A stretch of 64,000 nt of DNA, from positions 51,731 through 115,730 of the forward strand of contig JBHICG010000003.1 of the NCBI GenBank assembly GCA_046759445.1, in the 5' to 3' direction. The translations under genes were made by a program, and so were the position numbers. The DNA is from Candidatus Scalinduaceae bacterium. Lineage in GTDB: Bacteria > Planctomycetota > Brocadiia > Brocadiales > Scalinduaceae. Shown here piece after piece: positions 7,470 through 43,113 of this stretch (the first letter of the stretch is position 1; each line of letters begins with the position of its first letter). The notes beneath the pieces were generated by a model that was not told the origin of the DNA, made no database searches, and saw only the letters and a program-made list of their open reading frames with translations.

Positions 7470-7753
7470 GCTTCGGGAGAGACTCCCGAAGCACAAGAGA
7501 ATTTTAAAATTTATTATAATTGCATGAGTTCGGGAAATTGTTTTCCAATCCCCCCCTTCCCCCTTTGATAAAGGGGGTAATCCCCCTCAGTCCCCCTTTG
7601 GAAAAGGGGGATATAGGGGGATTTTCTTCTGCATCTGGATTACCCGTCCGAACGGCACCTGCCCGAAAGACATGGTCGGGCGTGTGGCTGGGCGGGCAGC
7701 CGCTACAAAGGAACAGGCATCTTTCTTTTTGAAAAAAAGAAGCCTGTTCCTTT
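7470..7753. repeat. Mosaic of REP-like palindromes between fliD and fliS
   Basis: TTCGGGAG-AGA-CTCCCGAA (7470-7492), CCCCCTTT/AAAGGGGG doublet (7547-7624), GC-rich CCTGCCC-type element (7642-7698), AAAGGAACAGGC...GCCTGTTCCTTT hairpin (7707-7753). Confidence 0.8.
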
Positions 7754-12013: not shown

Positions 12014-12055
12014 GCTTACTTATATTGCAACAAACTTAATAAGCGTTTATGTTGC

Positions 12056-13807: not shown

Positions 13808-14951
13808 GGATTTTGAAAAATTCTTCTGCACTTCTTTTCCATGTGAGTTGACTAAGGTCTTTTCCTGCCTGCAATCCAATATATCTCAGTTTCTCTCTGT
13901 TTTGATATGCCCATTCCAAATGGCCGATTGTTTCGTCTAGATCAGGGGCATCCCATGTGGCAAATATGTTTCCGTCTCTATAGATGCTCATTGGTTTTAT
14001 TTGTTTTATCATAATTGAATTATTTGCATTGATAATGTCCTTATGACCACTACTATGAGACGCAATTGTTGGTTTGCCACATGCCATATATTCCATAAGA
14101 ACGAGATTTGTGCCTCCTTCACAACGATTGGGGAATATGCCAATATCAGTGTTTTGATACATTCTTGCCATTAAGGCATTATGACGGGGTGATAATGTGA
14201 TAACTCGGTCCAAATCTATCCCGTTATCCTGAAGGGTCTTGTTCACTATCTCAATATAGTTATTTGATGTAATTTCAAACTTGATATGTGGAGAAGCAGC
14301 CATGGTTTTCATACTATCTGCCCAAAAATTAAACCATGAATTTACGAGCATTACGTCCTTATGTCTGTCTTGCAAAACTTTGTATGCTTTTATGACAATA
14401 TCCTGTCCCTTGCGAAGTTCAAATTTGCCGCCTGAAAAAACCATAAAGTGGTCTCTGAAGAATTCTTTCTCCGAATAGGAAGAATTATACAGAAGTGGGT
14501 CTATTCCCTGGATTATGGTAGTTACTTTTTCAAGTCCATATTTTCTTAGCACTTCTTCACACCATTTTGATCCCGTAATTATAATATCATAGTTATCCCT
14601 GCCGTTTTGAATATATCTTTGGTCAAGTATATTTTCTTCGAAGAAAGTATATCCTGCCTTGAAGGTACCTTTTAAATTTATTCCAAATGGTTGTAGGGTA
14701 TGATCGTTTATGGCTTGTAAAACAGGATAATCTACATGTTTGAGTGTGCCGTTTTTTATTTTAAGGGCCTCAGCTTCTCCGATTAATTTACTTTTAAGGA
14801 AATGAAAATCAAACTCATCACCAATATCTTTGATGCTAAAATTGTCCGTGATATATTTTATGTTAGTGATTTCAGATAACTCCTTTACGAGATACTTGCC
14901 GCAAATACCCCATCCGAAATTATTCCCTCTTGGTAGAATTAAATAAATCAT
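13767..14951 (-). CDS. Glycosyltransferase family 4 (GT-B)
   Basis: FSGGKFELRKGQDIVIKAY, FPNRCEGGTNLVLMEYMACGKP. Confidence 0.88.
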   Translation of the reverse strand: MIYLILPRGNNFGWGICGKYLVKELSEITNIKYITDNFSIKDIGDEFDFHFLKSKLIGEAEALKIKNGTLKHVDYPVLQAINDHTLQPFGINLKGTFKAGYTFFEENILDQRYIQNGRDNYDIIITGSKWCEEVLRKYGLEKVTTIIQGIDPLLYNSSYSEKEFFRDHFMVFSGGKFELRKGQDIVIKAYKVLQDRHKDVMLVNSWFNFWADSMKTMAASPHIKFEITSNNYIEIVNKTLQDNGIDLDRVITLSPRHNALMARMYQNTDIGIFPNRCEGGTNLVLMEYMACGKPTIASHSSGHKDIINANNSIMIKQIKPMSIYRDGNIFATWDAPDLDETIGHLEWAYQNREKLRYIGLQAGKDLSQLTWKRSAEEFFKILVKGNSATAELLR

Positions 14952-14952
14952 A

Positions 14953-14981
14953 TAAATTAGCTCCTTTCACTCGCTAATTTA
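14953..14981. repeat. Family F hairpin repeat containing the SD of the GT4 gene
   Basis: Minus strand TAAATTAGCGAGTGAAAGGAGCTAATTTA then T-ATG. Confidence 0.7.
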
Positions 14982-15006
14982 ATGTATAGGAAATTCAATA
15001 ATAGTT

Positions 15007-15125
15007 TCCCCCCACTTCTTGCTTTCGCAAGAAAGCAGTGGGGGGATAAAGGCCTGTCTGCCGACAGGTAGGGGTGTGTAAATATACCATTATACACACC
15101 CCCGGCCCCTCTTTTTAGAGGGGAG
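15007..15125. repeat. Nested REP-like palindromes
   Basis: CCCCCC-ACTTCTTGCTTTCGCAAGAAAGCAGT-GGGGGG (same as 35133-35172), CCTGTCTGCCGACAGG insert, CCCCTCT-TTTT-AGAGGGG hairpin containing the upstream gene's stop. Confidence 0.8.
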
Positions 15126-16986
15126 CTTGAAATTGTTGCCGAAGGCTTAAATCGTTGTTTTTTAAAACTGAAATAGCAATTTCAAAAGATGTGCTGGCAA
15201 GAAGTTCCTTTTGCTGTTTCGATAATGTTGTTCCTATATTTATGTAGATATTGCTTAAATCACTTATACTGTCAATTGTTACATTTCTGGGAAGATTAAG
15301 GCATTTCAACAATTCGTCACAACTCGCTACACAACTTTCCAGCTCATCGATGGACACATAAATCTTACTCAGGGCAAGATGAGACTCTATAAGGTATTTG
15401 TCCAACTTTAATGTATTCAAAAAACATTGCTTTGCCTTGACATAATTAGATTCACTTAAATATAGAGTGCCAAGCCTTATGATTACCTCTGGGTTTTCTG
15501 GTCTTATCGTTAATATGTCATTGTAAGTATCCCTTGCCTGATTAGTATTTCCTGCTCTCTCATATGCAATGGCCAGATTAAACAAAGCGCCAATATGTTG
15601 TGGGTCTTTATTGGTAACTGATTTAAATGAATTGATTGATTTATCGAATTGGTTGTCCTTCAAAAGGAGAAGCCCCAGGCGATATTGTGCCAATATTTCA
15701 TCTGGATAATCCTGAAGAATCTGTTTGAAATAAGCCAATGCTTTATCTGATGAACCGGATTTTTCATACATTTCTGCAATATAGTATTGAATATCTTTGT
15801 TCTTGGGGTTATTTTTAAGTCCATCTTTAAGAAGTCTTTCTGCTAATCTGAATTTATTTTGTTCCATGAAGTATTTTCCGATTGCAAGGTAAGGCTCCCA
15901 TGCATTGTTAGAACAGTTTACGGCATTCTTTAAGGCCTGAGACCCTTCGTTCTCTTTATCTAGTTGAAAGTAAACAATAGCCGTCCGTAAGTGAGCCTGC
16001 CAGGTGTGTTGGAGGGTATTATATGGTATAGCTAGGGCCGTGGTTGGATCTGATTCAATAGTTTTCAACAATCTTAAGTACTTTTTTGTAGCCTCAATGC
16101 ACTTACCATACTCTTTGTGTAGGAAATATATGGAAGATAATATACTATATGAGTCCAGATAATCAGGATAAAGATCAAGTGCCTTAAGGGCGTAATTTTC
16201 AGCATTGGTCAAATCTTTCTTACGATAAAAGGCAACGCTTACCGTATAGTAAGTGAGTAGCCTTAGCTGTGTATTGCTTTTTTGTAATTCGAATAGCCTA
16301 ATTGCCTCGAGACCTTCTTTGATACATTCGTCATACCTATTCCTGTCCAGGCATGAAATTGCCAGATAATGATGGGGAATCGGGTTCTTTGGATCATTCT
16401 TAATTTGTCCCTTTAAAAGGTTTGAGGTTCTTATAAATTTCCTTTCCATTTGATCTTCATCAAGATTGTAACCGTAATGATACAGTTTTATATTCACCTT
16501 CTTAGTTGGTCCTGTGTATTTCAGGTTGTTGTGGACTATTCCTTCATAGTGGACGCCAAGATGATTTTTAAATATTCTTTCTGAATTGGCGACAGCAAGA
16601 TTTTTGCTTCCATTAGTTTTGGCAAAGACTGGCAAAAAGATTACGTTTATTTTATTGTCTTTAATAACTTCCTTTAATTTGTGGGCATCTACATTGTCCA
16701 CTTCCTCATCTGCATCGAGTATCAGAATCCAGTCCGAGTTTGCATACTTAAGTGAATAATTTCGTGCCTTGCTGAAACTGTTTTCCCACGCATGATGATA
16801 AATCTTTGCGCCATATTCTTTTGCAATTTCAACTGTGCTATCGGTTGACCCGGTATCCACAATGATTATCTCGTCCACATAATCCTTGACGCTTTCCAGA
16901 CACGCAGGAAGAAACTGTTCTTCACTCTTTACTATCATACAGAGGGATAGAGTTGGATTGTTATTTCTCATATTTAAGGAAATCAC
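15115..16986 (-). CDS. GT2 glycosyltransferase + TPR repeats (flagellin O-glycosyltransferase-like)
   Basis: LSLCMIVKSEE, VDTGSTD, FSKARN, WILILDADE, HYGY followed by TPRs; start may be ATG 16971. Confidence 0.9.
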   Translation of the reverse strand: MISLNMRNNNPTLSLCMIVKSEEQFLPACLESVKDYVDEIIIVDTGSTDSTVEIAKEYGAKIYHHAWENSFSKARNYSLKYANSDWILILDADEEVDNVDAHKLKEVIKDNKINVIFLPVFAKTNGSKNLAVANSERIFKNHLGVHYEGIVHNNLKYTGPTKKVNIKLYHYGYNLDEDQMERKFIRTSNLLKGQIKNDPKNPIPHHYLAISCLDRNRYDECIKEGLEAIRLFELQKSNTQLRLLTYYTVSVAFYRKKDLTNAENYALKALDLYPDYLDSYSILSSIYFLHKEYGKCIEATKKYLRLLKTIESDPTTALAIPYNTLQHTWQAHLRTAIVYFQLDKENEGSQALKNAVNCSNNAWEPYLAIGKYFMEQNKFRLAERLLKDGLKNNPKNKDIQYYIAEMYEKSGSSDKALAYFKQILQDYPDEILAQYRLGLLLLKDNQFDKSINSFKSVTNKDPQHIGALFNLAIAYERAGNTNQARDTYNDILTIRPENPEVIIRLGTLYLSESNYVKAKQCFLNTLKLDKYLIESHLALSKIYVSIDELESCVASCDELLKCLNLPRNVTIDSISDLSNIYINIGTTLSKQQKELLASTSFEIAISVLKNNDLSLRQQFQAPL

Positions 16987-17175
16987 CCTTTAGGCATTAT
17001 CTTAGTTTAAAAGGCTAAAAATGTTAACTCCTTCTTTGCTACTAAGCTTTACGGAGTTAAGTCTTTAGACTTTTATAATCTGCAAACTTTTATTAAAAGC
17101 TAAAGCCTTAATTCCAATTATCTATCTTTTTCTGCGATATTTAACTTACGTGACTATGATTCTCATATTACTATA

Positions 17176-18642
17176 TCAGGGACTTATGCCTGATGTTACA
17201 GCTTCTGTTTCAATCTTATTCAGTACATCAGGGTCCAGGAGGGCCGCAACCTCAAACGAAAACCTGGCAAGGAGTTCCTTTTGCTGTTTCAATAATGTTG
17301 TTCCTACGTTTATATAAAGTTTGCCTAAATCAGACATGCTATTGATTATTATGTTTCTAGGAAGATTAAGGTATTTCAACAATTCATCACAACTTTTTAT
17401 ACATTCCTCTATGTTATTCTGGGAGATATAAATCTTGCTCAATGCAAGATGGGCCTCAATCAGGTATTTGTCCAACTTTAATGTACTCAAAAAGCAATCT
17501 TTTGCCTGATTAGTATTTCCCACTCTCTCATATGCAACAGCCAGATTAAATAGTGCATCGATGTGTTGTGTGTCTTTATTGATAACTAATTTGAACGTAT
17601 TAATTGCTTCATCGAATTGATTATCCTTCAAAAAGAGAAGTCCCATGCGATATTGAGCCAGTATTTCTTTTGGATAATTATCTAAATCTTCTTTGAATTG
17701 GAAATGCTCTGAGTTGTGTAATTTGTCAAGGATGTATATGAGAGTCTCGGTCTGTTTGTCTATCGTTGAAAAATGTTTGTCATAGACCGTTTTGACTTTT
17801 TTTCTCATTGTCTCAATCTGCCTGTCAGTGTAAGAGTTTAAGATGGAAATAGTATTATGCCAGTCCTCTGGATCTATAATGACTGAAAAAGAACCGTAAT
17901 CTAATATCTCACTAAACGGCAAGACCCACCCGTGAGTAAAGATAACGGGTATCGTTCCAAATGCCATTACTTCAAGTAAACGATAGGAAAATAAAGCATC
18001 TCCTCTGAGGATTAACGAGAACCTTGTATTCGATAAAAGGTCCAGATATTCCCGATTATTTTCTTGTCCAGTTGCCCATGGCCTCGTGTGGCCACTTTTA
18101 TTATGATCCAGGAGCTTTATGATAATATCGTCATTATTGTGAAATTTTAGAAAGTTTAGTCTGAAAGGATGTGATATTGCTCCCTTAAATGTCAAATAAT
18201 ATTTCTCCTGGCGTGTGAAATGAGCAGGAATTTTAGTGGTTGGAGAGGCCGGAAAGCTAACGTCTATTCCTTTTCTATAATTATCATTGGACAAACTGGA
18301 GGAGGCAAGAATTACATTTTCGTATTCAAACATTTTGGTAAAATTAGAGAATGGATTCATATCAAAAAGGACATGTCTTTTGGGGCCATTCCAAAATTCT
18401 AATTTCCGAAGTTGACCAGGCGCCTCACTGAAATCTGTTAGTTTACCTTTTATGAATGCTTTATCCGCATGCCCATATTCTGGCCAATTGGTTTCGCAAG
18501 CAGTGTCAAAGCCTGGAAAAAGAAGTGTCGCTTCTTTCGGATCAACGACTCTCTGCTTATGAGTCTCTAGAGACTTGTGAACTAAATCATACCATTTCGT
18601 GAGACATTTGGAATTTGTTTTTGGGTAGAGATAAAATTTCAT
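17176..18642 (-). CDS. Exostosin-like (GT47) glycosyltransferase fused to TPR/C-terminal module
   Basis: KYYLTFKG, FSLILRGD..SYRLLEVMAFGTIPVIFTHGWVLPFSEILDY; C-terminal module paralogous to that of 15115-16986. Confidence 0.82.
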   Translation of the reverse strand: MKFYLYPKTNSKCLTKWYDLVHKSLETHKQRVVDPKEATLLFPGFDTACETNWPEYGHADKAFIKGKLTDFSEAPGQLRKLEFWNGPKRHVLFDMNPFSNFTKMFEYENVILASSSLSNDNYRKGIDVSFPASPTTKIPAHFTRQEKYYLTFKGAISHPFRLNFLKFHNNDDIIIKLLDHNKSGHTRPWATGQENNREYLDLLSNTRFSLILRGDALFSYRLLEVMAFGTIPVIFTHGWVLPFSEILDYGSFSVIIDPEDWHNTISILNSYTDRQIETMRKKVKTVYDKHFSTIDKQTETLIYILDKLHNSEHFQFKEDLDNYPKEILAQYRMGLLFLKDNQFDEAINTFKLVINKDTQHIDALFNLAVAYERVGNTNQAKDCFLSTLKLDKYLIEAHLALSKIYISQNNIEECIKSCDELLKYLNLPRNIIINSMSDLGKLYINVGTTLLKQQKELLARFSFEVAALLDPDVLNKIETEAVTSGISP

Positions 18643-18728
18643 GACAACTCACAGACTAAACTATAGCATCGTTACCATAACCGTTTAACGTAAATTTATA
18701 GTATAGGAATTTTCATTTTAATGTTTAC

Positions 18729-19069
18729 CAGCCCGACAGTATCGTTATGGCGGGTAAATCGATCTTGCTGGTTCAATCATGTTGATTGAACCTAAATGTT
18801 CTGGCTCAGGCTGCAAGCCTGAACCAGCCAAATGGTTAAATTCAATCCCCCTTAGTCCCCCTTTAGTAAAGGGGGTTCTGTGTTCTGTGTTTCGGGAGTC
18901 CCTCCCGAAACATCATCATCTCTAATACTTACTGTTAAATAAAGCATGAAGATTCGCTTCGGGAGAGACTCCCGAAACACAGGAATTTGTTTCAATTTAT
19001 GTTAATTGGTGTCTGTTGCGGAATTGTCAATGACATTTTTGGGAATTTAAGTTTCCGCAATAGAAACTA
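18729..19069. repeat. Mosaic of at least five palindromic repeat families
   Basis: GCTGGTTCA.../...TGAACCAGC doublet, CCCCCTTT-AGT-AAAGGGGG, two TTCGGGAG..CTCCCGAA units, CTGTTGCGGAA...TTCCGCAATAG TIR pair. Confidence 0.8.
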
Positions 19070-22000
19070 ATTAGCAGTTAGAACATTTACTGTATCCATT
19101 GGTTGAACTCGTTTCAGATCCTCGCATATCTTAAAAGCAGTATCAGCAGCTTGAGTATCCCGCCTTTCTTTAAGTTTATGGCCTATTATGTCAAAGAGAT
19201 TTGCCAGATCAGATATGCTTTCCAATGTTATATTTCTAGATATATTGAGGAGTTGCAATAACTGGTCGCAATAAGAGACAACATCTTCGAAATTACCTTG
19301 AAGAATATTAATTTTGCATATAAGTAATCTGATATCAAACAGAGAAGGTTCTATATTGACGGCCTTTTCCCAAAAATGAATAGCTTCCTTGAGGTTGCCT
19401 TTTTTAAATTTAACATGACCCATTTTGATAATTGCATCTACTGAAGTATCTTTAATATTTAGGAGCTTCTTGTAGATTTCCTCCGACTTTTCAAGATTGT
19501 TATTATCCAGATAGAATTTACCTATAAGCCTAAGGCAATCTTCAATTGCAGTCGACACCTTAAGCGCTTTATCTATCTCGGCATTGCCCTTTTCATTCTG
19601 ACCGCTGGATAGGTAGTAAAATCCACGTAACAAATGTATCTTCCATTTATGACCAATGGTATAGTAGGTATATGCATTAATCGCTTCATTGTGATTTGCG
19701 ATACTATCCAATAGAGTTATATAATTGTCTGAAGTCTGCAGAAAATTGTCATACTTTTTCAGATTGTAATAAATGAATGATAGGATACAGAAAACATCTA
19801 AGTAATTTTCATCGATTCCCATTGCTCGCAGGGCGTATGTTTCTGACTCTTTTAGTTCTCCTTTCTCAAAATATGCGGCGCTGATAACGTAGTAAGAAAC
19901 CAGGAAATCTTTTATATTAAATCCATTATTCTCTGCAAGTTCTAATGCCCTCTTACTTTCTGAGACTGCCTCATCATACATACCCTGATCCAGATACGAA
20001 ATGCCGAGGTACCTGTGCGGAACAGGATTATGTGGTTCTTGTTTTATCTGATCCTTTAATAATATGGTGGTGCGTAAAAACTTTTCTTCCATTTTTTCTT
20101 CAGATAAGTTATAGCCGTGATGGATAACACTTAACGAGGAATCAAGACATTTACCCGTATGCCTTAAGCGATTGTGCACAGTTCCCTCATAATACGTCCC
20201 GTTAAAGTTCTTGAAAAGGCGTATCATCTTTGCGTAGCATTCTTGTGTGGAATCTTTAAACTTATTTTTAATAAGAAAAGAAACAGCCGTATAGTTGTTA
20301 TTACTGGCTATTTCTTTTAGCTTGGGGATATCAGTCTTATTCATCTCTTCGTCGGCATCGAGTATTAATATCCATTCACTGGTTGCATATTTCAGTGAAT
20401 AATTTCTTGCCTTGCTAAAACTCCCTTCCCATGGATGATGAAATAATTTTGCTCCAAAACTCTTTGCAATCTCGACACTCCTGTCAGTAGAACCTGTATC
20501 AACAATTATTATTTCATCTACTACATCTTTGACGATGTTAAGGCACTGTGCAAGATTATGTTCTTCATTTTTTACGATCATGCAGAGGGATATACTGCCA
20601 TGAAATCCCCCCCACTGCTTTCTTGCACCGTAGCGGCACGCTGCGAAAGCAAGAAGTGGGGGGGATTTAGGTGGATTCTCTCTTCTCTTCGATAATTTCT
20701 TCTGGACGTTTTTGAGGTTATTTATGATTACCTGATTATGAGGGTCAAATTCACTGGCCTTTTTGAAGAAGAACGCTGCCCTTTCGTACAACCCTTCTTT
20801 ATCTTCAAGACAACCAAGATTATTGTAAATCTCTGCATCCTTTACCCTCTGAAGGACTTTATAAAAGAAGATCCTTGATTCCTCGAATCGCTTCATGTCA
20901 AGACACAGTGTTCCCATGCCCTTGATAGCATTGACGTAATCTGTATCGATTTCTAATGCCTTTTTATATAGCGTTTCTGCCATCTTAAAATCATTCTTTA
21001 AGTAATACAAACGTCCGAGATTGTACTGTGCGGATTTTGATTGAGGACAAAACTCACAAGCCTTCTTCAGGTAAAAATCGGCATGGTCGTAATCATCGAG
21101 TGAACTATATACACAACCAAGATTTTCGTATGCCTCGAAATAATCAGGTGATATGTCTATGGCTTTTTTCAAATACTTTACTGCATCTTCAAATAAACCT
21201 TTCTCTGAACACTGTATTCCAAGGTCAAAGTGTGCCCTTGCGTTGTTGGGATTGTCTTTTATCTTTTTCATGCCGATAGAAAGATACAAGTCTCCTTTTT
21301 TGTCTAGTTGTTGTTTGTCTTTAGCTTTTCCGTAATGATGAATTACAATATCAGTATTTCCTATTTGATTGTTTCCATCAAGGTGTGAAATATCCGCAAT
21401 TTCATGCACTCTGCCACTGAAACGGATCCCCCTCCGGTTTTTGAATAGTCTGATTAGGGGAGAATCTATATATCCAGCGTAATCCTTGCCTTCAATGTAG
21501 TCTGTCTTATTCTCCATCCAGCCCTTGAAACCTGCATAATTTTCATAATTTCTCTGTATCAAATTAAATCCGGTATTATCTGTAATACTTATTAATTCCC
21601 TTATTCTTTGCATATCTTTCTCTGCTATGACTTCGTCTGCATCGAGCGCCAATATCCAATTGCCAGTTGCATGTCTAAGAGATATATTTCTTGCCTCACT
21701 AAAATCGTCATTCCATTTATGGCCGTACACCCTGGCGCCATACTGTTTTGCTATCTCAACAGTTTCATCATCTGAACCTGTATCTACTACAATAATCTCG
21801 TCTACAAATGGTTTCATCTTTTGCAGACATTTTGGCAGGTAGTCTTCTTCATTCTTAACTATCATGCATAAGGATATAGTTGATCTGCTTTTTTCATCCA
21901 AAGATCTTACAAATATTCCATCCATTTTACTAATTGGAGGATTATCCAGTTCTACTTTGCCAACAGGCATAATCCCCCTTCCTCCCCCTTTGATAAAGGG

Positions 22001-23278
22001 GGAATGAGGGGGATTTTCATCTTCCTTCCTGTCCGAACGCCTTGCCTGAGCGGATGTGCCTTCTTTTGAAGTGATTGTTACGTTTTTGTTATTAAAAATA
22101 TTGTTGTGACTTCTTTCAAAAATAGTGTTTGATGGCGTACAAGTTCCTTTTATTTCTCTATCAAGCTCTCCATCCCATTCTCTGGCTATTACGTCCCATG
22201 AATAATTTTCTAATGCCCTGTGATGTGCTGTCAAGCTCATTTCGTTCCATCTATCCTTGTATCTTATCAGATGAACAACCTCTTTTACGAACCGATCTTG
22301 ATAATCACGAGATTTACTATTTCCTGATATACAAATACCTGTCTTATTGTGTAGAACTGTTTCACTTAACCCGCCTGATTCTGTTGTTACAACGGGAAGT
22401 CCGGCAGCTTGCGCCTCTATTGCGGCTATGCAAGAAGTCTCAGTGAAGTGGTTGGGATATACCATTAGATAGGATTTCTTTAATTCGTCGGATAATATGT
22501 TCTGAGGTATGCTGCCCTTGAGGTAAATGCCCGGCTGATTGCATTTGTCATAAAGCTTTCCATACATCTTCCTGTTATCGTCTTCTGACATTCCGTATAC
22601 GCACATACTGCTATATATAAATAGTTCAGCAAATGGTATTCTGGTTTTAATAATCGGGAAAACATCCAGAAGTACATCCAGCCCCCTGAAAGGAGTACTG
22701 GTATACACAAGCCTGCCAATATTTCTTTTGTATTTATTGTTTTCGTAAAATTCTCGATTTATACCATTTCTGCTTAGAAAAAATTTTTCTGAGGATATAT
22801 TAAAATGTTTCATCATTGTCTCTGCTTGCCATTTCCCAACGGTAAAGATCTTATCGATTCTGTTTTGAATATATTTATTGCCAAGGTCTTTCAGGAATGG
22901 CTGGTCGTAAGCATCCTGTGTCCAGAATATTTTTAATCTTGCAGGAAGATTCATTTTAAAGGCATCCAACATTCTTGAGACAACCATGACATCGAAGTTT
23001 TTCCCCAAAATATAACTTTCGGATTCTTTGATGTCTTGATATAAAACACCATTGTAGTTTCCAGGGGCATTACATGGACAAATGACTACTACATCATTGC
23101 CAAGCCTGGCCAATTCTTTTGCAATGTATATTATTGCAGTTTCACTGCCGCCCAATCCTTTGTTTATAATAGTCTCAGGATTGAATTCTACGCTGTTGGC
23201 AAGGAATAATATGGATTTCTTCATATCTTTAACTTTAATATTTTGCCACAGAAATTCCACGGAATTATGCTGAAACAC
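19067..23278 (-). CDS. Multidomain glycosyltransferase GT4-GT2-TPR-GT2-TPR (1403 aa)
   Basis: GLGGSETA, YTSTPFRGL, ETSCIAAIEAQAAG (GT4); two ISLCMIVKNEE..DTGS..DADE GT2 domains each followed by TPRs; start may be ATG 23224. Confidence 0.9.
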   Translation of the reverse strand: MFQHNSVEFLWQNIKVKDMKKSILFLANSVEFNPETIINKGLGGSETAIIYIAKELARLGNDVVVICPCNAPGNYNGVLYQDIKESESYILGKNFDVMVVSRMLDAFKMNLPARLKIFWTQDAYDQPFLKDLGNKYIQNRIDKIFTVGKWQAETMMKHFNISSEKFFLSRNGINREFYENNKYKRNIGRLVYTSTPFRGLDVLLDVFPIIKTRIPFAELFIYSSMCVYGMSEDDNRKMYGKLYDKCNQPGIYLKGSIPQNILSDELKKSYLMVYPNHFTETSCIAAIEAQAAGLPVVTTESGGLSETVLHNKTGICISGNSKSRDYQDRFVKEVVHLIRYKDRWNEMSLTAHHRALENYSWDVIAREWDGELDREIKGTCTPSNTIFERSHNNIFNNKNVTITSKEGTSAQARRSDRKEDENPPHSPFIKGGGRGIMPVGKVELDNPPISKMDGIFVRSLDEKSRSTISLCMIVKNEEDYLPKCLQKMKPFVDEIIVVDTGSDDETVEIAKQYGARVYGHKWNDDFSEARNISLRHATGNWILALDADEVIAEKDMQRIRELISITDNTGFNLIQRNYENYAGFKGWMENKTDYIEGKDYAGYIDSPLIRLFKNRRGIRFSGRVHEIADISHLDGNNQIGNTDIVIHHYGKAKDKQQLDKKGDLYLSIGMKKIKDNPNNARAHFDLGIQCSEKGLFEDAVKYLKKAIDISPDYFEAYENLGCVYSSLDDYDHADFYLKKACEFCPQSKSAQYNLGRLYYLKNDFKMAETLYKKALEIDTDYVNAIKGMGTLCLDMKRFEESRIFFYKVLQRVKDAEIYNNLGCLEDKEGLYERAAFFFKKASEFDPHNQVIINNLKNVQKKLSKRRENPPKSPPLLAFAACRYGARKQWGGFHGSISLCMIVKNEEHNLAQCLNIVKDVVDEIIIVDTGSTDRSVEIAKSFGAKLFHHPWEGSFSKARNYSLKYATSEWILILDADEEMNKTDIPKLKEIASNNNYTAVSFLIKNKFKDSTQECYAKMIRLFKNFNGTYYEGTVHNRLRHTGKCLDSSLSVIHHGYNLSEEKMEEKFLRTTILLKDQIKQEPHNPVPHRYLGISYLDQGMYDEAVSESKRALELAENNGFNIKDFLVSYYVISAAYFEKGELKESETYALRAMGIDENYLDVFCILSFIYYNLKKYDNFLQTSDNYITLLDSIANHNEAINAYTYYTIGHKWKIHLLRGFYYLSSGQNEKGNAEIDKALKVSTAIEDCLRLIGKFYLDNNNLEKSEEIYKKLLNIKDTSVDAIIKMGHVKFKKGNLKEAIHFWEKAVNIEPSLFDIRLLICKINILQGNFEDVVSYCDQLLQLLNISRNITLESISDLANLFDIIGHKLKERRDTQAADTAFKICEDLKRVQPMDTVNVLTAN
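20602..20678. repeat. In-frame nested palindromic element inside CDS
   Basis: Encodes NPPKSPPLLAFAACRYGARKQWGGF; homologous to intergenic elements at 15008 and 35121. Confidence 0.88.
21971..22017. repeat. In-frame CCCCCTTT/AAAGGGGG palindromic element inside CDS
   Basis: Encodes ENPPHSPFIKGGGRGI; near-identical hairpin at intergenic 7547-7577. Confidence 0.88.
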
Positions 23279-23405
23279 AATGACAACGAAATTCTAAGCA
23301 TTAAATCCCGGCCTCGCCGGCAGGCCCGTCAGCCATTCTTCGGGCAGGCAGGCGAAATACAAAACAATTTCAAATTTCAAAAGATATTGAGCAATTATTC
23401 ATGTG

Positions 23406-25289
23406 CTAAACCGCAATTCGCAATCCCAAATCGACAACCTCTTGTAACAATGCCTTTCTAATCTGTTCGAACACTCCACCCCAATCTTTTGGTCTGGTTT
23501 GTCTAAATAAGCGCACATCCGGATACCACGGGCTATCATCACGGTTTAATAACCAGCGCCAATCTGGCGCAAAAGGCAAGAGAACCCACACCTGTTTGCC
23601 AATGGCTCCAGCTAAATGCACAACTGCGGTATCTACGGCAATGACCAGGTCTAAATTGGATATTGCGGCTGCCGTATCTGCAAAGTCGCTTAAATCATTT
23701 TCAAGGTCTATGATTTTCATTCCCTTAGGCGAATTAAGTATTTCCACCGATGCTGGTCCTTTTTGAAGACTGTAAAAAGTTAACCCCGGAATGTCAGCAA
23801 GTGGAGCAAGGTCAGTGAGTGAACAGGAACGATTGCGGTCATTTCTATGCCTGGGATTGCCTGCCCAAACAAGGCCAACCTTAAAAGTATCGTCTTGATC
23901 AAGGCGCATGCGCCATTGCGCCACAAGTTCGTGATCAACCGAAATATAGGGTACATCCGATGGTATAGTTTGCAGAGTTGTGCCAAATATTCCTGGTAGA
24001 CTTAGTAATGGTATATGGAAGTTAAAATGTGCGGCAGGTTTACGGTTAGCTTTATGTTCTATAATCTCGTCAAACCCTGTACATTTTTTTAATAAGCGTG
24101 AAAGAACCTGCTGGCACTCAAATATTACGTGTCCTCCTTGTGCATGTACCATAGGGAGATATCTCACGAATTGAATGGTGTCGCCAAGACCTTGCTCTGC
24201 GTGTACGAGTATGGACTTGCCTTTTAGCGGCGTGCCGTCCCATCGTGGTTGCTGGAAGACGTTTGAAGTGCAATCTTTTGTGAGCAATCTCCATTCATAC
24301 TCTGGCCAGCCGTCTTCAAAGCTTTCTGTTAACAATAATGCAAGAGACCTATTTCTATACGCCTCTACATACTCAGGTCTGAGTTCAATTGCGCGACTGT
24401 AACTCTCTACAGCTTTGTCAAGTTTGCCCTGGTCTTGAAGCGCAACAGCAAGATTATTGTGCGAAGTGGCATCGTCTGGTTTAAGGGCAATTGCGCGTCT
24501 ACAACATGCTACCGCCTCATCAAGCTTGCCTTGTTCTTGAAGTATAACGCCAAGATTGTTGTGTGCCGTGGCATCGTCTGGTTTAAGCTTAATTGCTCGC
24601 TTACAGTATTTCACTGCCTCATCAAATTTACCCTGTTTTTTTAAGGTGTTACCAAGATTATAATGAGCCTCAACATAGTTCGGTTTGAGTTTTATAGCCT
24701 GGATAAAGCTCGCAATTGCTTCGTCAAGTCTGCCTAGTTCTTGTAGCGCCGTAGCGAGATTATTATGCGCTATTACATAATCGGGTCTGAGCTTTAATAC
24801 CTGCCTGTAAGTTTTTACTGCCTCATCATATTTACCGTGTTCTTGAAGTGTATTGCCAAGATTGAAATGAACCTCAGCATCGTCTGACTTTAGCGCTATT
24901 ACGCACCTGTAACTTTCTATGGCTTCGTAAAATTTATCCTGTTTTTTAAATGTGTTGCCGAGATTGAAATATACGTCAGCATAGTCAGGGTTGATTGCTA
25001 TTGCTTGATTATAAGTGGCTACTGCCTCGTCAAGTTTGCCCTGTTCTTGAAGTGCCGTGCCAAGATTGTTATGCGCAACCACATTGTCTGGTTTGAGTTT
25101 TATTGCCTTCCTGAGGAAAGTGGCGGCTGTATCATGATTTCCCTGTTGTAGATTCAAGGTGCCAAGGAGAAAATTTGTATCAGCGTGTTCTGGCTGTTTC
25201 TTCAGTAGCTTTTGGTAAAGTTGCGCTGCTGCTGCTAGATTTCCAGCCTGGTGATAATTATACCCTTTTTGAAGCCATCCTTTAACCAT
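23406..25289 (-). CDS. TPR repeats + GT9-like (GT-B) domain protein
   Basis: Long TPR array then GWPEYEWR, HAEQGLGDTIQFVRY, GLVWAGNP, DLVIAVDTAVVHLAGA, DWRW...SPWYP. Confidence 0.88.
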   Translation of the reverse strand: MVKGWLQKGYNYHQAGNLAAAAQLYQKLLKKQPEHADTNFLLGTLNLQQGNHDTAATFLRKAIKLKPDNVVAHNNLGTALQEQGKLDEAVATYNQAIAINPDYADVYFNLGNTFKKQDKFYEAIESYRCVIALKSDDAEVHFNLGNTLQEHGKYDEAVKTYRQVLKLRPDYVIAHNNLATALQELGRLDEAIASFIQAIKLKPNYVEAHYNLGNTLKKQGKFDEAVKYCKRAIKLKPDDATAHNNLGVILQEQGKLDEAVACCRRAIALKPDDATSHNNLAVALQDQGKLDKAVESYSRAIELRPEYVEAYRNRSLALLLTESFEDGWPEYEWRLLTKDCTSNVFQQPRWDGTPLKGKSILVHAEQGLGDTIQFVRYLPMVHAQGGHVIFECQQVLSRLLKKCTGFDEIIEHKANRKPAAHFNFHIPLLSLPGIFGTTLQTIPSDVPYISVDHELVAQWRMRLDQDDTFKVGLVWAGNPRHRNDRNRSCSLTDLAPLADIPGLTFYSLQKGPASVEILNSPKGMKIIDLENDLSDFADTAAAISNLDLVIAVDTAVVHLAGAIGKQVWVLLPFAPDWRWLLNRDDSPWYPDVRLFRQTRPKDWGGVFEQIRKALLQEVVDLGLRIAV

Positions 25290-25296
25290 TACATAA

Positions 25297-26508
25297 TTAC
25301 TCGCTTTGTCTTAAAAATTTATCCTTGCTAAAAAGCACATTAAAAACAAATTTTGATTGCAAATACTGGTCGGGCATCAATTTAACCACTTTTAGATTTA
25401 AACCTTCTCCACTGAAACAGTAGGTGTTGTATCCAAGTTCACTCATAAACTTCCTTAGTTCACCTTCACTTGTTCCCATTTGCCGTAAAGCAGACCTATT
25501 AACTTCACAGATAATATAGGGAATATTATTTTTTAATATGATGGTTTCGCCTCCGCGTAGAATATCGAATTCGGCTCCCTCCGCATCAATCTTTATCAGT
25601 TTGCAAGTCACAAGATTTTTATCTCTAAAAAAATTGTTCAGAGTTTCGAGTTTAATTTTTTTTACTAATTGATTAACACGGCTTATCTTGTTGAAACTAT
25701 GTGTGCCTACATCCCATAAAGCGTGTCCTCCATCATTATCCAGATTTAGAAAAAAATCAGTTTCTCTATTTTTTACTCCCAATGCCAAATTAAATGCGTG
25801 TATATTCGTTTTTTTATTGATTGTAATATGTCTTTTTATGTGATTGTAATTAGAAATAGATGGTTCAAAAGTGAAGACATTGCCTTCTTTTCCAACTAAC
25901 TCAGAGGCTAACAATGAAAAATATCCAATGTGTCCTCCAATATCGATTACAACGTCGCCCATTTTTACTATAGTTGCTATAAAACAGGAAGTTTCTTCTT
26001 CATATAATCTATTATGTGAGATAAAATCCCAAATTATTTTTTGACTAAATTCTTCCAGATTTAATGTCAGCTTATACTTCAGAGGAATATCGCCTAGCTT
26101 AAAGGATAAATTTATTTCCTTTGTTATATTAGAACTAAATGAGTAATCTTTTTGCTTCTTTAAGTTATTAATTATAGTTTCCTTTTCTTCTGTTGATAGG
26201 CAATTGCCGTACTCTGTCAAAATCGTTTTTACTGCCTTCCAGTTGCCAATTTCTTGATAATTCAAAATAAGATTGTGTATTGCATCTGTATTATTATTGT
26301 CTTTTCTGAGCACTTCCAAAAAAGTCGATGTGGCTTCATGGTATTTCCCTAACCTGTATAGAGATACGCCTTTATTATTTAAGGCAGAAAGATTTCCAGG
26401 TTCCTTTTCCAATATAGATTCGAAGATTTTAAGAGCCTCTTCTATTGCTCCTTCCCGAAAGAGTTGTTCTCCATGCGCAATTTCTCCACTTAATATGCCT
26501 GTAGTCAT
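25297..26508 (-). CDS. TPR + FkbM-family SAM methyltransferase
   Basis: VIDIGGHIGYFS, VFTFEP, LIKIDAEGAEFDILRG; N-terminal TPRs. Confidence 0.9.
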   Translation of the reverse strand: MTTGILSGEIAHGEQLFREGAIEEALKIFESILEKEPGNLSALNNKGVSLYRLGKYHEATSTFLEVLRKDNNNTDAIHNLILNYQEIGNWKAVKTILTEYGNCLSTEEKETIINNLKKQKDYSFSSNITKEINLSFKLGDIPLKYKLTLNLEEFSQKIIWDFISHNRLYEEETSCFIATIVKMGDVVIDIGGHIGYFSLLASELVGKEGNVFTFEPSISNYNHIKRHITINKKTNIHAFNLALGVKNRETDFFLNLDNDGGHALWDVGTHSFNKISRVNQLVKKIKLETLNNFFRDKNLVTCKLIKIDAEGAEFDILRGGETIILKNNIPYIICEVNRSALRQMGTSEGELRKFMSELGYNTYCFSGEGLNLKVVKLMPDQYLQSKFVFNVLFSKDKFLRQSE

Positions 26509-26667
26509 TTTTGTCTCCTGTTTAGCCTTCTATAATTTTTTGCTCTTTTTTGTTCAACAATAATTCTAGGAATTTCAATGTTACCACAAAGATTCCTGTC
26601 TGCCGTGCTCACGGCACAGGCGGGCAGGTCTGGTTTCTTACCCGACATAATGAAGACTGCCGAAGGC

Positions 26668-28191
26668 TTAACTTGAAAATAGCTTGTGTGTCTGGTTTAA
26701 AATTATTTCATTACTCCATTTCGGACTGATAAATTCTTTTAGCAATTCTTTTTTCACCCGCTCGAATACTCCAATCCAATCATAGAATTGAGTTTGTCTG
26801 AATAGGCGCATACTTGGATACCACGAGCTATCATCACGGTTTAGCAACCAGCGCCAGTCTGGCGCAGAATGTAATAGATTCCACACAGGTTTTCCAATGG
26901 CTCCAGCCAGATGCGCAACTGCGGTATCTACGGAAATGACCAGTTCCAGATTAGCTATTACGGCTGCTGTATCTGCAAAGTCGTTTAACTCATCTCCCAG
27001 GTTAGTTAGTTTAACCCACTTGGGTGGATCGAGTGTATCTACTGATGCTGGTCCTTTTTGGAGTCCGTAGAAGGACAGGTCTGGAATGTTAAATAATGGA
27101 ACAAAATCAGCCAGTGAACAGGAACGATAACGATCCTTCTTGTGCTTGGGGCTACCTGCCCAGACAATACCAATCTTAAAATCATTATTGTGATCAAGTC
27201 GCATGTGCCATTGATCAACGAGCTTGGGATCAACAGTAATGTAAGGTATGTCTGATGGTATGGTGTCTAAGGTAGTGCCGAAAATTCCAGGTAAGCTCAG
27301 CAGAGGGACATGAACGTCGAATTGATTAGTTGTTTCCTTGTCAGGTGTTCGTTCTACAATCTCATCAATACCTGCGCAATTTTCCAATAATTTGGATAGG
27401 CCCCGTTGGCACTCAAATAGCACATATCCACCCTGTGCCTTGACCATAGGTAAGTACCGTACGAAATGAATGGTATCACCAAAACCTTGCTCAGCATGCA
27501 CCAGGATATGCTGACCATTGAGTGGTGAGCCATCCCATTGGGGTTGTTTGAAATTTTTAGGGGCATCATCTTTTGTACAAAGTCTCCATTCATATTCTGG
27601 CCAACCCTCTTCTAACTTTCCAGCCAACAATAATGCAACAGACATATTCATATGGGCATCAGCAAAGTCTGGTTTGTGTTTTATTGCCTGCCTGTAATTT
27701 CCAACTGCCTCGTCAAGCTTACCCTGTTCTTTAAGCACATTACCAAGGTTGTAATACATCTCAGCGTCACCTGGGTTGTGTGAAATTGCATTCCTGTAGC
27801 TATTTACTGCCTCATCAAGCTTGCCCTGTTCTATAAATGCATTACCAAGGTTGTAATATGCATCAGCATAGTCTGGCTTGAGTGTTATTGCTTGATTAAA
27901 ACTTAGCACTGCTTCATCGAGTTTACGTTGTTTTTGAAGAACAGTGCCAAGATTATTGTATGCTACCACATGGTCTGGTTTGAGTTCTATTGCCTTCCTG
28001 AGAAATATGGTGGCAGTTTCAAGATTTCCCTGTTGTAGATTAAGAGTTCCAAGAAGAAAAATTGCGTCAATATTTCCTGGTTGTTTGTCAAGTATCTTTT
28101 GGTAAAGCTGTGCCGCTGCTGCAAGATTTCCCGTTTGGTGACAGTTATGTCCTTCTTGAAGTAAGTCTTCTATATTGGCCATTATAAGCAA
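26668..28191 (-). CDS. TPR repeats + GT9-like domain protein (paralog 2)
   Basis: Same architecture and motifs as 23406-25289; start TTG 28191 or ATG 28182. Confidence 0.88.
   Translation of the reverse strand: MLIMANIEDLLQEGHNCHQTGNLAAAAQLYQKILDKQPGNIDAIFLLGTLNLQQGNLETATIFLRKAIELKPDHVVAYNNLGTVLQKQRKLDEAVLSFNQAITLKPDYADAYYNLGNAFIEQGKLDEAVNSYRNAISHNPGDAEMYYNLGNVLKEQGKLDEAVGNYRQAIKHKPDFADAHMNMSVALLLAGKLEEGWPEYEWRLCTKDDAPKNFKQPQWDGSPLNGQHILVHAEQGFGDTIHFVRYLPMVKAQGGYVLFECQRGLSKLLENCAGIDEIVERTPDKETTNQFDVHVPLLSLPGIFGTTLDTIPSDIPYITVDPKLVDQWHMRLDHNNDFKIGIVWAGSPKHKKDRYRSCSLADFVPLFNIPDLSFYGLQKGPASVDTLDPPKWVKLTNLGDELNDFADTAAVIANLELVISVDTAVAHLAGAIGKPVWNLLHSAPDWRWLLNRDDSSWYPSMRLFRQTQFYDWIGVFERVKKELLKEFISPKWSNEIILNQTHKLFSS
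27170..27559. repeat. 390-bp exact direct repeat, second copy at 28724-29113
   Basis: Base-by-base comparison showed no mismatch over this interval (offset 1554). Confidence 0.9.
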
Positions 28192-28239
28192 ATAAGCTCC
28201 TTAATACTTTTATAAATAAGATATGTGCCTGATTAGAGT

Positions 28240-35094: not shown

Positions 35095-35186
35095 AATTCC
35101 CCCCTTTGCTGAAGGGGTGAAATCCCCTTAATCCCCCCCCACTTCTTGCTTTCGCAAGAAAGCAGTGGGGGGAAATAGGGGGATTT
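35095..35186. repeat. Nested REP-like palindromes between flgD and flgE
   Basis: AATCCCC...GGGGATTT frame containing ACTTCTTGCTTTCGCAAGAAAGCAGT. Confidence 0.8.
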
Positions 35187-39006: not shown

Positions 39007-39978
39007 ATGAGAGCTATAAAATCAGTATATTTGGTTTTGTTTACGTTTGTGTTTGTTCATATTGCTTTAGCAGATCAAATTGAAATAAACATTAAGGATA
39101 AAGTCACTCTTAAAGAAAAAACAATAACAATTAGTGACATCTCAACAGTTGTTGGTGATGACGTTGCACTCGTCAACAGGATTAATAATATAGAAATTGG
39201 AAGAACACCATGGCCAAATAATCAAAGAAGGATAGGTGCGGAATATATGATGATGCGTCTTAGGGCATTAAACATCAATTTGTCGGATATTATTTTCAAA
39301 GGAGCCAAGGCGGTTATAGTTTCGGTCGAATCGACAAAAATAACTGGTGCAGAAATTGCACAAAAAGCAAAGGAGTATTTGTTATCTGTTATAACATCAA
39401 AGGATAGAGAAACAATCATAGAGTTGGTAAGAATACCCGGTGATCAATGGGTGACAAAAAGAAGGGACGAGATTGTTCTCAGTGTATCTCTTGCAGATAA
39501 TAGTAAAAATAGAGGCAATATAGAGGTAATAGTTAGTGCCCCTTCGGACGATATTCCTTTTTTCAAAATACCTGTGTTTTTTAAAGTCAGGGTGTTCGAA
39601 AACGTTGCCATTGCAAAGAGGAGGATAAATAGTCGCCAGCCCTTAACTAGTGAGAACGTGTTTTTAGGCAAAAGAGAGACTACAGAAACAAGGGGTTTAG
39701 CCTATTCCAGCTTGGAGGATTTAGTGGATAAGGTGGCAATCCGAACAATTCTCCCAAATACTATAATTACAGAGGAAATACTTGAAACACCTCCGGCAAT
39801 AAAAAGGGGTAATGTAGTGAAATTATTTATAAAAGCTGATAATTTTAGTATCATCACCAAGGGGTTGGCACAGGAAACTGGATATACTGGTGAAGTGATA
39901 AAGTTCAAGAATTTAGATACAGAAAAGGTAATTTACGGTAAAATTATAGATTCTGAGAACGTCCAGATAGTATTTTAA
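39007..39978 (+). CDS. flgA: P-ring assembly chaperone FlgA
   Basis: Signal peptide, SAF-like region, C-terminal IKRGNVV..GLAQETG..GEVIKFKNLDTEKVIYG; between flgG and flgH. Confidence 0.9.
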   Translation: MRAIKSVYLVLFTFVFVHIALADQIEINIKDKVTLKEKTITISDISTVVGDDVALVNRINNIEIGRTPWPNNQRRIGAEYMMMRLRALNINLSDIIFKGAKAVIVSVESTKITGAEIAQKAKEYLLSVITSKDRETIIELVRIPGDQWVTKRRDEIVLSVSLADNSKNRGNIEVIVSAPSDDIPFFKIPVFFKVRVFENVAIAKRRINSRQPLTSENVFLGKRETTETRGLAYSSLEDLVDKVAIRTILPNTIITEEILETPPAIKRGNVVKLFIKADNFSIITKGLAQETGYTGEVIKFKNLDTEKVIYGKIIDSENVQIVF

Positions 39979-40057
39979 TCCCCCCCCCACTTCTTGCCCC
40001 CAATGCTTTCTTGTGGAAGCAAGGAATGGGGGCAGCGGGGGTGAATAAGCGGAATTT
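39977..40057. repeat. REP-like element with an inverted copy of its own insert nested inside
   Basis: CCCCACTTCTTG[CCCCCAATGCTTTCTTGTGGAAGCAAGGAATGGGGG]CAGCGGGGG. Confidence 0.7.
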
Positions 40058-42248: not shown

Positions 42249-42557
42249 GTGGATATACCATTTGATAGTGAATTTGTAATAAATTTTGCAAAAACAGAAA
42301 ATGCAAAGGATATTTTAAAAAACAATCTTAAGTCTTCGTACGAAATTGAGAAGGCAACACAAGATTTTGAGGCTATATTATTAAATATGTTAATCCAGGC
42401 AATGTGGAAAACAATACCAGAGTCTGGATTATTTGAGAAAAACAGTTCGACCCAAATTTATGAGGGGATAATTCAATCAGCGCTTTCGGAGGAGATAGCC
42501 AGAGGCGGTGGTTTGGGTATAGGAAAGATTATATACCAACAAATTAGTAAAGAATAA
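42249..42557 (+). CDS. flgJ: FlgJ rod-binding domain only (no muramidase)
   Basis: ATQDFEAILLNMLIQAMWKTIP..GGLGIGKIIYQQ; follows flgI. Confidence 0.85.
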   Translation: MDIPFDSEFVINFAKTENAKDILKNNLKSSYEIEKATQDFEAILLNMLIQAMWKTIPESGLFEKNSSTQIYEGIIQSALSEEIARGGGLGIGKIIYQQISKE

Positions 42558-42573
42558 ATCCCCTTTAATAAAG

Positions 42574-43113
42574 GTGGATTTTGGGAATTCAATTTTATAT
42601 GGAGAAATTACCTTGGAAAACCTGATACAGAATCTGACTGAAACATTAGGTGAGATGGTCAAAATATATAAAGATATCCTTCAAACTGCACTGGAAAAAA
42701 AGAAACATATATTTTCTGGAGATATTGACAAACTTGAAGCAGTCATTTATCGAGAGCGTAACCTTGCAGAAAACATTCTTCTTCTGGAAGAAAAAAGAAG
42801 ATACATAATGCAGTCAATAAGCCAGACTATTGGAGATATTCATACTCTTCCAACCCTTCGTGAATTCATAGAACAGATTCGAGAACCTTATAAGGATAAA
42901 CTAAAAAAACAGTATGATGAAATCTCAGACGTAATCATGAAGGTTGAGGATGTCAATAGAACCAACACAACACTTACAAAGTATTCACTGGAATTTGTGA
43001 ATAATCTTATAAAATCTATATGCTCAGAATCGCTTAACGACTCTGTTTATCAACAATCTGGTAAATTAAAGGGACCTGAACTTAAGAGATTATTATTTGA
43101 GCTAAGTGCGTAG
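42574..43113 (+). CDS. flgN: Export chaperone FlgN
   Basis: Helical FlgN pattern (GDIDKLE..ERNL..LEEKR, VNRTNTTL, YQQSG), directly upstream of flgK; start may be TTG 42613. Confidence 0.82.
   Translation: MDFGNSILYGEITLENLIQNLTETLGEMVKIYKDILQTALEKKKHIFSGDIDKLEAVIYRERNLAENILLLEEKRRYIMQSISQTIGDIHTLPTLREFIEQIREPYKDKLKKQYDEISDVIMKVEDVNRTNTTLTKYSLEFVNNLIKSICSESLNDSVYQQSGKLKGPELKRLLFELSA

Follow-up and report, generated by a model that had tools for sequence, protein, structure and literature searches.

Intergenic-type palindromic repeats translated in frame at both domain junctions of a three-unit glycosyltransferase from a Scalinduaceae bacterium

The 64-kb stretch of DNA analyzed here (the window; contig JBHICG010000003.1 of a Candidatus Scalinduaceae bacterium) carries on its minus strand, at 19067-23278, an open reading frame (ORF) of 1403 residues that joins three glycosyltransferase (GT) units in a single chain. 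Its parts follow in the order GT4, linker J1, a first GT2 domain with tetratricopeptide repeats (TPRs) termed M1, linker J2, and a second GT2-TPR unit termed M2. By Pfam and NCBIfam matches, the GT4 domain reaches to about residue 322, the first GT2 domain starts at about 470, its TPRs run to about 861, and the second GT2 domain starts at 897; in an alignment of the protein with its relatives (A1), GT4 conservation extends to about residue 378, ending ...WDGELDREIKG. Each of the two linkers holds a palindromic DNA repeat that is read in the frame of the protein. The presence of in-frame palindromes at both domain junctions was the core of the original prediction, and it is confirmed by the ORF, the inverted repeats and the Pfam borders. 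The coordinates first assigned to the two repeats, 21971-22017 and 20602-20678, are right except for a one-base offset at some ends (Table 1).

The GT2 domain of M2 matches GmaR (PDB 22ao, E 6.5e-29) and SunS (7msp, E 3.7e-25), and the GmaR match begins at M2 residue 4, immediately after the J2 repeat. The 1403-aa protein shares with GmaR- and SunS-type GTs the succession of a GT2 catalytic domain and TPRs but, unlike them, combines three transferase units. GmaR glycosylates flagellin, and the flagellar locus that contains the 1403-aa gene also encodes flagellin, FliD and FliS. Because of these matches and this setting, the protein is likely a flagellin-glycosylation enzyme, a putative role assigned from sequence.

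C or G runs of five to eight bases are error-prone, and a continuous ORF could arise from homopolymer errors in the C7/G7 tracts or from chimeric assembly at a repeat, the real genes being separate. The 504-aa protein P0123 equals M2 from residue 900 onward and is encoded on a 1620-bp contig that seemingly ends near the J2 repeat, which points to an interruption, there or close by, in a different assembly of this sequence. Even so, an artefact of this kind is highly improbable. Outside its repeat, linker J1 comprises 72 codons with no stop in the protein frame, against three and eight stops in the other frames, and the chance of 72 stop-free codons given the base composition is small (P ~0.007). 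Furthermore, J2 is read through in 17 independently assembled relatives and J1 in two, and both repeats are shorter than ordinary reads. Given that stops close every frame of J1 but that of the protein, and that the relatives from other assemblies are likewise read through, the 1403-aa ORF is judged to be real.

The J1 repeat (coding strand 22018-21971, ENPPHSPFIKGGGRGI) is a nested double hairpin whose A-rich tail reaches about 22022, and the J2 repeat (coding strand 20677-20603, NPPKSPPLLAFAACRYGARKQWGGF) is a longer hairpin with an 18-bp insert at its tip. The inverted-repeat arms measure 21 nt with 86% complementarity in J1 (I9) and 22 nt with 91% in J2 (I6). As RNA, the hairpins have predicted folding energies of -32.6 kcal/mol for J1 (z -3.95) and -42.2 kcal/mol for J2 (z -6.9), with 0 of 200 shuffles equally stable, and both are also predicted to fold stably as DNA. 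Aligned with the copies at 15008 and 35135, the J2 copy shows a single 18-column gap at the tip and otherwise identical stems. In gene orientation, neither repeat contains a stop in any of the three frames, so that only a length divisible by three is needed (45 bp for J1, 48+18 bp for J2). The claim that the innermost insert preserves the frame therefore stands as an exact 18-column gap, but the preservation is nearly automatic in an element that is open in every frame. The encoded peptide is rich in Pro and Gly because C-runs give Pro and G-runs give Gly, whatever the frame. A second, decayed J1 repeat at about 21915-21943 (DNPPISKMDG) was seen by eye but was missed by the family profile at E<=50 and is not counted. 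The reading of J1 and J2 as intrinsic terminators was also rejected: no terminator-like site is called on the minus strand, which is the coding strand, at either repeat, and the J1-type T-run lies on the opposite strand.

Both in-gene repeats match intergenic repeats, as had been claimed, and their siblings occupy six spacers of the window, that is, of 64 kb of this genome in which 45 ORFs were counted as genes. The pattern CCCCCTTT..AAAGGGGG has four matches in the window and the pattern CCCCCCACT..AGTGGGGGG has two, against 0.00 expected by shuffling in each case; GGGGGATT has 12 matches against 1.95 expected, with 0 of 100 shuffles yielding as many. Counts so far above those of shuffled sequence exclude a chance origin. 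Intergenic DNA makes up 15.7% of the window yet holds six of the eight repeat loci (binomial p 3e-4), and every intergenic copy falls between co-directional genes of the flagellar cluster. A profile of the J1-type unit (nhmmer) finds seven loci at E<0.05, the sole genic one being J1 itself (E 4e-15), and the repeat peptide motif occurs in one of the 45 window proteins. The original proposal that such repeats are tolerated only at linkers agrees with this distribution: within the window, the inter-enzyme linkers of this one gene are occupied and no other genic site is.

Other repeats share these spacers. GC-rich modules stand beside the palindromes at 7640-7700 and ~15050-15075 and translate as PFGRV and PTCRQTG. 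A second palindromic family, TTCGGGAG..CTCCCGAA with CACAG ends, accompanies the C/G-run palindromes in their spacers (7469-7493, 18885-18982); at 18885-18982 there is a 25-nt inverted repeat with 96% complementarity.

Table 1. Units of the 1403-aa protein, in-gene repeats and intergenic sibling copies, in window coordinates
Feature	Position	Strand	Description
GT4 (GT-B) glycosyltransferase unit	22145..23224	-	residues ~19-378; Pfam Glyco_transf_4, Glycos_transf_1, Glyco_trans_1_4
Linker J1	21884..22144	-	residues 379-465; differs in sequence and length across the three full-length fused proteins
J1 repeat	21971..22015	-	45-bp nested double hairpin AATCCCCCT..TCCCCCTTT-atc-AAAGGGGGA..AGGGGGATT; residues 422-436, peptide NPPHSPFIKGGGRGI
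M1, first GT2 + short TPR domain	20681..21883	-	residues 466-866
Linker J2	20597..20689	-	residues 864-894; bounded by conserved ...NNLKNVQKKLSK and SISLCMIV
J2 repeat	20603..20668	-	66-bp hairpin AAATC7ACTTCTTGCTTTCGCA[18 bp]AGAAAGCAGTG7ATTT; residues 871-892, peptide KSPPLLAFAACRYGARKQWGGF
18-bp insert at J2 hairpin tip	20624..20641	-	within the GCAA loop of sibling copies; lengthens the stem
M2, second GT2 (GmaR/SunS-like) + TPR domain	19070..20596	-	residues 895-1403; stand-alone gene in most relatives
Intergenic half unit + full 45-bp unit	7547..7623		fliS/fliD spacer; another repeat module next to it at ~7636-7700
Intergenic J2-type copy without the 18-bp insert	15007..15046		I18; followed by another palindromic module at ~15050-15075
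Intergenic J1-type copy (left arm + core)	18844..18875		directly downstream of the neighbor of the 1403-aa gene
Intergenic composite	35097..35185		flgD/flgE spacer; J2-type core (I19) within AATCCCCC..GGGGGATT arms; weak unit 35097-35117
Degenerate intergenic J2-type copy	39977..40045		flgA/flgH spacer; D13, 67%
Weak single-hairpin copy	42556..42585		boundary of genes 42249-42557 and 42574-43113; profile E 0.003

In-frame translated palindromic repeats are already a known kind of event, found here in another bacterial group. In two reviews (PMC10969869, PMC2229807), Rickettsia palindromic elements (RPEs; Ogata et al. 2000) are described as palindromes that lie both in intergenic DNA and in frame in intact genes, where they are translated and judged roughly neutral. 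The J1 and J2 repeats are likewise palindromes of an intergenic type held in frame in an intact ORF, and the comparison with RPEs made in the original prediction is apt as an analogy only: there is no sequence relation between them. As described there, RPEs are ~100-150 bp long, belong to Rickettsia families and occupy many unrelated genes, whereas the units here are 45-66 bp long, have C/G-run clamps and occur in one of 45 genes, in fusion linkers only.

Repetitive extragenic palindromes (REPs) offer a second comparison. A study of intragenic REPs (Di Nocera et al. 2013, PMC3733652) describes elements of 20-40 bp that are tagged by GTAG or CGTC, form mostly extragenic hairpins and sometimes lie within genes; in recB of two Xanthomonas species, different REPs occupy approximately the same site. 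[quoted passage not shown] The J1 and J2 repeats resemble REPs as short imperfect palindromes that form a stable hairpin. Unlike REPs, the window copies all end in AATCCCCC / GGGGGATT(TT) without a GTAG or CGTC tag, and the family forms a nested double hairpin. No REP-associated tyrosine transposase (RAYT) is encoded among the 45 window ORFs. For enterobacterial repetitive intergenic consensus (ERIC) elements, the 107-bp Correia element and Yersinia palindromes (YPAL), one of the two reviews (Delihas 2008, PMC2229807) reports that stop-free variants are fused in frame and stop-rich ones are intergenic, and notes fusions of a domain with an element. These elements are 100-170 bp long with terminal inverted repeats and TA duplications, whereas the J1 and J2 repeats show no evident duplication. 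As in MITEs (transposable elements of the miniature inverted-repeat type), the entire J1/J2 unit is an inverted repeat. In Nostoc, small dispersed repeats reportedly described by Elhai and colleagues in 2008 are said to be hairpin units of ~20-27 nt that nest in their own copies and stand beside heptamer tandem repeats. By this description alone they resemble the 18-bp tip insert and the heptamer-type linkers discussed below, the Nostoc repeats being cyanobacterial families. Among the matches listed, a literature search found no paper on such palindromic repeats in Scalindua, those matches being on CRISPR or other subjects, and a search on gene fusion via intergenic REP linkers gave nothing relevant by title or abstract.

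The named homologues of the 1403-aa protein belong to Candidatus Scalindua. The homologue search listed 120 proteins, and alignment A1 combines the window protein with the 15 that have at least 55% best local identity; the longer proteins P0004, P0007 and P0017, at 31-33% identity, are omitted. The GT4-M1-M2 architecture is found in the window, P0002 (71%) and P0003 (63%), and P0005 has the architecture GT4-M2. The 12 others, together with the partial proteins P0125 and P0133, are built as M1'-M2, in which M1' has a different GT2 domain, 33% identical to M1 (tblastn); the last ~110 residues of the TPR tail are common to both. Additionally, a search with M2 only returns many proteins of 494-590 aa and 52-69% identity that start with MKN followed by TISLCMIV or with a short leader.

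A tree of the M2 module only was rooted on two paralogues; it left out rows without the anchor motif (P0140, P0143, P0163, P0166) as well as P0123 and P0124. Stand-alone M2 forms of 494-590 aa, beginning at or just ahead of the GT2 domain, make up 56 of its rows. All 17 M1/M1'-M2 proteins, the window's included, group in a single clade; its 18 rows include one more protein, P0138 (499 aa on a 1843-bp contig), which is probably truncated. This clade has a Shimodaira-Hasegawa-like approximate likelihood ratio (SH-aLRT) support of 94 in a quick tree of 76 rows and an ultrafast bootstrap (UFBoot) / SH-aLRT support of 97/95 in a careful tree, reduced to 64 rows by the removal of 12 near-identical ones. 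Because stand-alone clades surround the fused clade, the M1/M1'-M2 fusion is, on this tree, derived and of single origin. The GT4-M2 fusion of P0005 lies inside a stand-alone clade and is by the same tree an independent event.

Across A1, J1 and J2 are hypervariable in length and sequence, with strongly conserved flanks on either side. The J2 linkers of the 17 fused proteins (window included) were sorted by eye from their peptides. A C-run/G-run palindrome (ENPP...GGF) is present in six (window, P0006, P0008, P0013, P0019, P0133), its left arm followed by another hairpin in two (P0009, P0015), a short SPFxKGG-type core in three (P0010, P0011, P0014), and a heptamer-type repeat (EIRNPKSEI) in four (P0012, P0016, P0018, P0125); P0002 and P0003 have no recognizable repeat. 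The J2 linker is thus repeat-derived in 15 of 17. For P0009, the type was verified in DNA (locus L005): between the window and L005, the flanks are conserved up to GAGAATCC and CA(T/G)GGCAG, and the hairpins between them are unrelated. The J1 linkers of the three GT4-M1-M2 proteins all differ. That of P0002 was considered as a decayed repeat copy, with ~5/13 residues identical at the same place, a likeness that is suggestive only and was not adopted.

The modules that fill these linkers recur elsewhere. RPAVPFGRV and RPAKPFGRV in the linkers of P0008 and P0133 correspond to the window's intergenic module at 7640-7700, and PTCR..AG in the J1 linker of P0003 corresponds to that at ~15050-15075. 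Heptamer-type peptides (...SEIRNPKSEI...) are also present in the N-terminal leaders of the stand-alone proteins P0148, P0168 and P0124. By these comparisons, the linkers behave as intergenic spacer DNA within a gene, with the same kit of repeat modules and a fast turnover beside conserved enzymes. The window has the flanks GEN-PP ... GGF-x-G in common with several M1' branches at the base of the fused clade, which makes it the simpler reading that a palindrome was probably present in the J2 linker of the fused-clade ancestor. The P0002 linker starts GEN-EN, which could be the A-rich tails of the element. Because the stems of the window's copies equal those of their intergenic siblings while the flanking protein is 60-71% identical among orthologues, the present copies look younger than the fusion, or homogenized. 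Heptamer-period repeats also occur upstream of the S. sediminis gene (L005 9940-10090).

The recurrence of repeats in the same linker of many relatives, and the position of the hairpins at both domain borders, could alternatively reflect selection. The mRNA hairpins might slow ribosomes at the borders and so let one enzyme fold ahead of the emergence of the next, set mRNA stability or allow initiation at M437, or the Pro/Gly peptides might be tuned linkers. The hairpins of the mRNA strand are predicted to be very stable, as their energies attest, and the G-rich arm of J1 forms a Shine-Dalgarno-like run just before an in-frame ATG (M437; 21966-21971, coding strand ...GGAGGAAGGGGGATT ATG); this ATG may mark where the M1 gene once started, or may serve as an internal start. 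However, the sequence at the site is not conserved: relatives have unrelated hairpins or none, and the closest ones manage without a J2 repeat. The same elements are scattered through ordinary spacers, the coding strand has no terminator-like call, and an Rfam scan of the window gave 0 matches at the gathering score. A selected function is accordingly an improbable reason for the presence of the repeats.

A stronger alternative was part of the original prediction, which proposed that ancestral genes fused by read-through of repeat-containing spacers. The linkers would then be former intergenic spacers with a stop-free repeat; the upstream stop would have been lost, read-through would have fused the genes, and the repeat would be the scar. 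Spacers between co-directional genes of the window often hold repeats (six loci), the repeats are open in most frames, and J2 occupies the exact position of a stop, spacer and start as judged from the stand-alone forms that begin with MKN before TISLCMIV. Moreover, a repeat-derived peptide with the GEN-PP...GGF-x-G flanks is shared by the window and the basal fused branches, the heptamer-type KSEIRNPKS is found in both stand-alone leaders and fused linkers, and GGAGGAAGGGGG followed by an in-frame ATG directly after the J1 repeat resembles a relic start site.

What stands of this proposal is that the enzyme arose, as a derived state, by fusion of units encoded separately in relatives, and that the J2 linkers are mostly repeat-derived. 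Read-through itself finds less support. A comparison of split and fused orthologues, suggested as a check, shows stand-alone M2 to be common but yields no split form with a palindrome in the spacer. M2 orthologues are separate genes in L001 (Ca. S. arabica, 67% identity) and in L002, from another Scalindua metagenome-assembled genome (MAG; 57%). Their upstream genes are other ones, a radical-SAM gene in L001 and a TPR gene in L002, and neither of these loci, both with DNA, has a palindrome in the spacer upstream of M2. Likewise, none of L001, L002, L005, L006 and L020 contains a C5..G5 palindrome whose stem reaches 7 bp. Tandem GT2-TPR genes in L012 and in the Brocadia locus L058 are separate, with plain ~45-bp spacers. 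Furthermore, the closest relatives, P0002 and P0003, are fused without an intact J2 palindrome, and the window's copies look young. Capture of a spacer is therefore a tentative explanation, possible but rather unlikely.

Beyond the window, the repeat core TCCCCCTTTnnnAAAGGGGG was found among 80 fetched loci (1.29 Mb) solely in L022, which holds nine copies. L022 comes from a Thermodesulfobacteriota MAG and has a GC content of 48.5% against 37.3% in the window; the occurrence of the core across phyla is subject to the caveat of MAG binning. The L022 copies (5160-5240, 13200-13390, 14290-14480, 20588-20632, 21524-21560) include the window's two loop variants and the GGGGGATTTT tail. In a CgeB-like GT-TPR protein of this locus, a 59-aa array occurs twice, between DUF3880 and Glyco_trans_1_2 and again after the TPRs. 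Because the former array lies inside a single CgeB-like enzyme, where there is no gene boundary, tolerance of repeats is favored over fusion. A GT9 protein of the same locus has one repeat unit after its GT9 domain that joins it to an unknown C-terminal part, an arrangement in line with spacer capture.

Searches of protein collections for the repeat peptides, proposed as a further check, gave no evidence of a widespread translated family, a weak negative because the queries were short and biased. Against 1.84 billion representatives, the 59-aa array of L022 had four matches at E<=1e-3: its own cluster, an LpxK-like 474-aa protein and two small ORFs. The LpxK-like protein (P0243) carries a related array (NPPSPPFSKGG ... 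IPPLEKGDTGGF) at residues 380-439, near its C-terminus. When the 40-aa J2 stretch was compared with longer proteins, the only one found among four candidates was the window's own protein. Plasmid and phage records contained one 37-bp partial match, on an Acinetobacter plasmid, and none in phages, which is uninformative.

A bolder form of the fusion scenario treats stop-free palindromic spacers as ready-made Pro/Gly linkers. The loss of one stop in a GT operon would then give a working fusion, the captured hairpin would draw nested insertions, and the repeats would promote fusion across phyla (Scalindua and the Thermodesulfobacteriota MAG). This scenario is doubtful; if it were true, gene fusion would have a supply of linkers in such repeats.

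The explanation preferred here, with a probability of roughly 0.55, is that the in-gene repeats are tolerated selfish hairpin repeats of a REP- or MITE-like kind that reside in a hot-spot linker. The J1 and J2 repeats belong to a family of small, nested, G/C-clamped palindromes that fill the short spacers between co-directional genes. Within genes they may persist in inter-enzyme linkers, and only there, since linkers, presumably disordered, carry no fold to break. Their persistence would be helped by the coding of a Pro- and Gly-rich peptide by the C- and G-runs and by the near absence of stop codons in the elements, and survival would be restricted to copies whose length is a multiple of three. 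A palindrome of this sort would have been present in the J2 linker from roughly the time of the last ancestor shared by all M1-M2 fusions, and the linker has been a hot spot of turnover from then on, its inner part replaced, nested into (by the 18-bp insert in the window and by longer ones in relatives), shortened or lost. Nested insertion into existing hairpins is the likely cause of such a hot spot, as suggested by the 18-bp tip insert, by P0008 compared with P0006, and by the composite at 35127-35185. In this account the neutrality of the peptide, the attraction of further insertions by the hairpin and the mobility of the elements are inferred from the pattern.

Several points weigh against tolerated selfish repeats. 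Seven of the nine core copies in L022 are in frame in two domain-bearing ORFs, so that the family is not always mainly intergenic. No transposase, insertion sequence (IS) or RAYT gene (IS200/IS605-like Y1) was found among the 45 window ORFs by Pfam scan, and no clear direct repeat that would mark a target-site duplication lies beside J1 or J2. The 18-bp insert, in which GCA is duplicated around the 15 inner bases, is unique, with no second copy in the window (at up to three mismatches) or in the 80 loci. The linkers of relatives were classed from peptides, with DNA for L005 only. Parsimony on the basal polytomy, tied between two losses and two gains, does not tell whether the fusion or the repeat came first. 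Finally, some small probability belongs to a function for the hairpins.

If tolerance is the correct explanation, the orthologue series shows selfish hairpin repeats interacting with protein architecture, inter-domain linkers being the one genic place that lets such repeats arrive, remain and undergo turnover. A single orthologous linker of 12-45 residues has been rebuilt many times from the intergenic repeat stock while the adjoining enzymes remained 60-70% identical. For annotation, Pro/Gly-rich oddities at the domain borders of MAG proteins become recognizable as translated repeats rather than errors.

The remaining features of the window concern its wider setting. Flagellar genes occupy 6400-13200 and 32400-46900 and encode FlgN, FliS, a 1039-aa FliD, flagellin, FliK, FlgD/E/F/G/A/H/I, a rod-binding protein, FlgK/L and FliW. 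They surround a block of at least 10 GT, TPR and methyltransferase genes (13767-29736), which is probably a flagellin-glycosylation island. Within the FliK-like ORF at 32479-34671, which encodes a hook-length-control protein, repeats of 51-94 nt (D7, D10, D11; 32886-33977) occur both in tandem and dispersed. A 56-nt direct repeat, 95% identical, lies in two spacers 18 kb apart (13706-13761, 31703-31758) and terminates in a hairpin with a perfect 16-nt stem (GTGATTCTGCCTGTCC..). The 32-nt AT-rich motif AATAAATTAGCTCCTTTC..CTAATTTA occurs three times (14951-14982, 54969-55000, 55726-55757), abutting gene ends or starts, and is possibly a shared regulatory or ribosome-binding region. The ORF at 11534-11917 encodes a 23S rRNA-intervening-sequence protein (PF05635), and its flanks (11344-11535, 11906-11958) consist of AT-rich tandem repeats with an 8-nt period and long imperfect inverted repeats (I1, I5, I7, D9).

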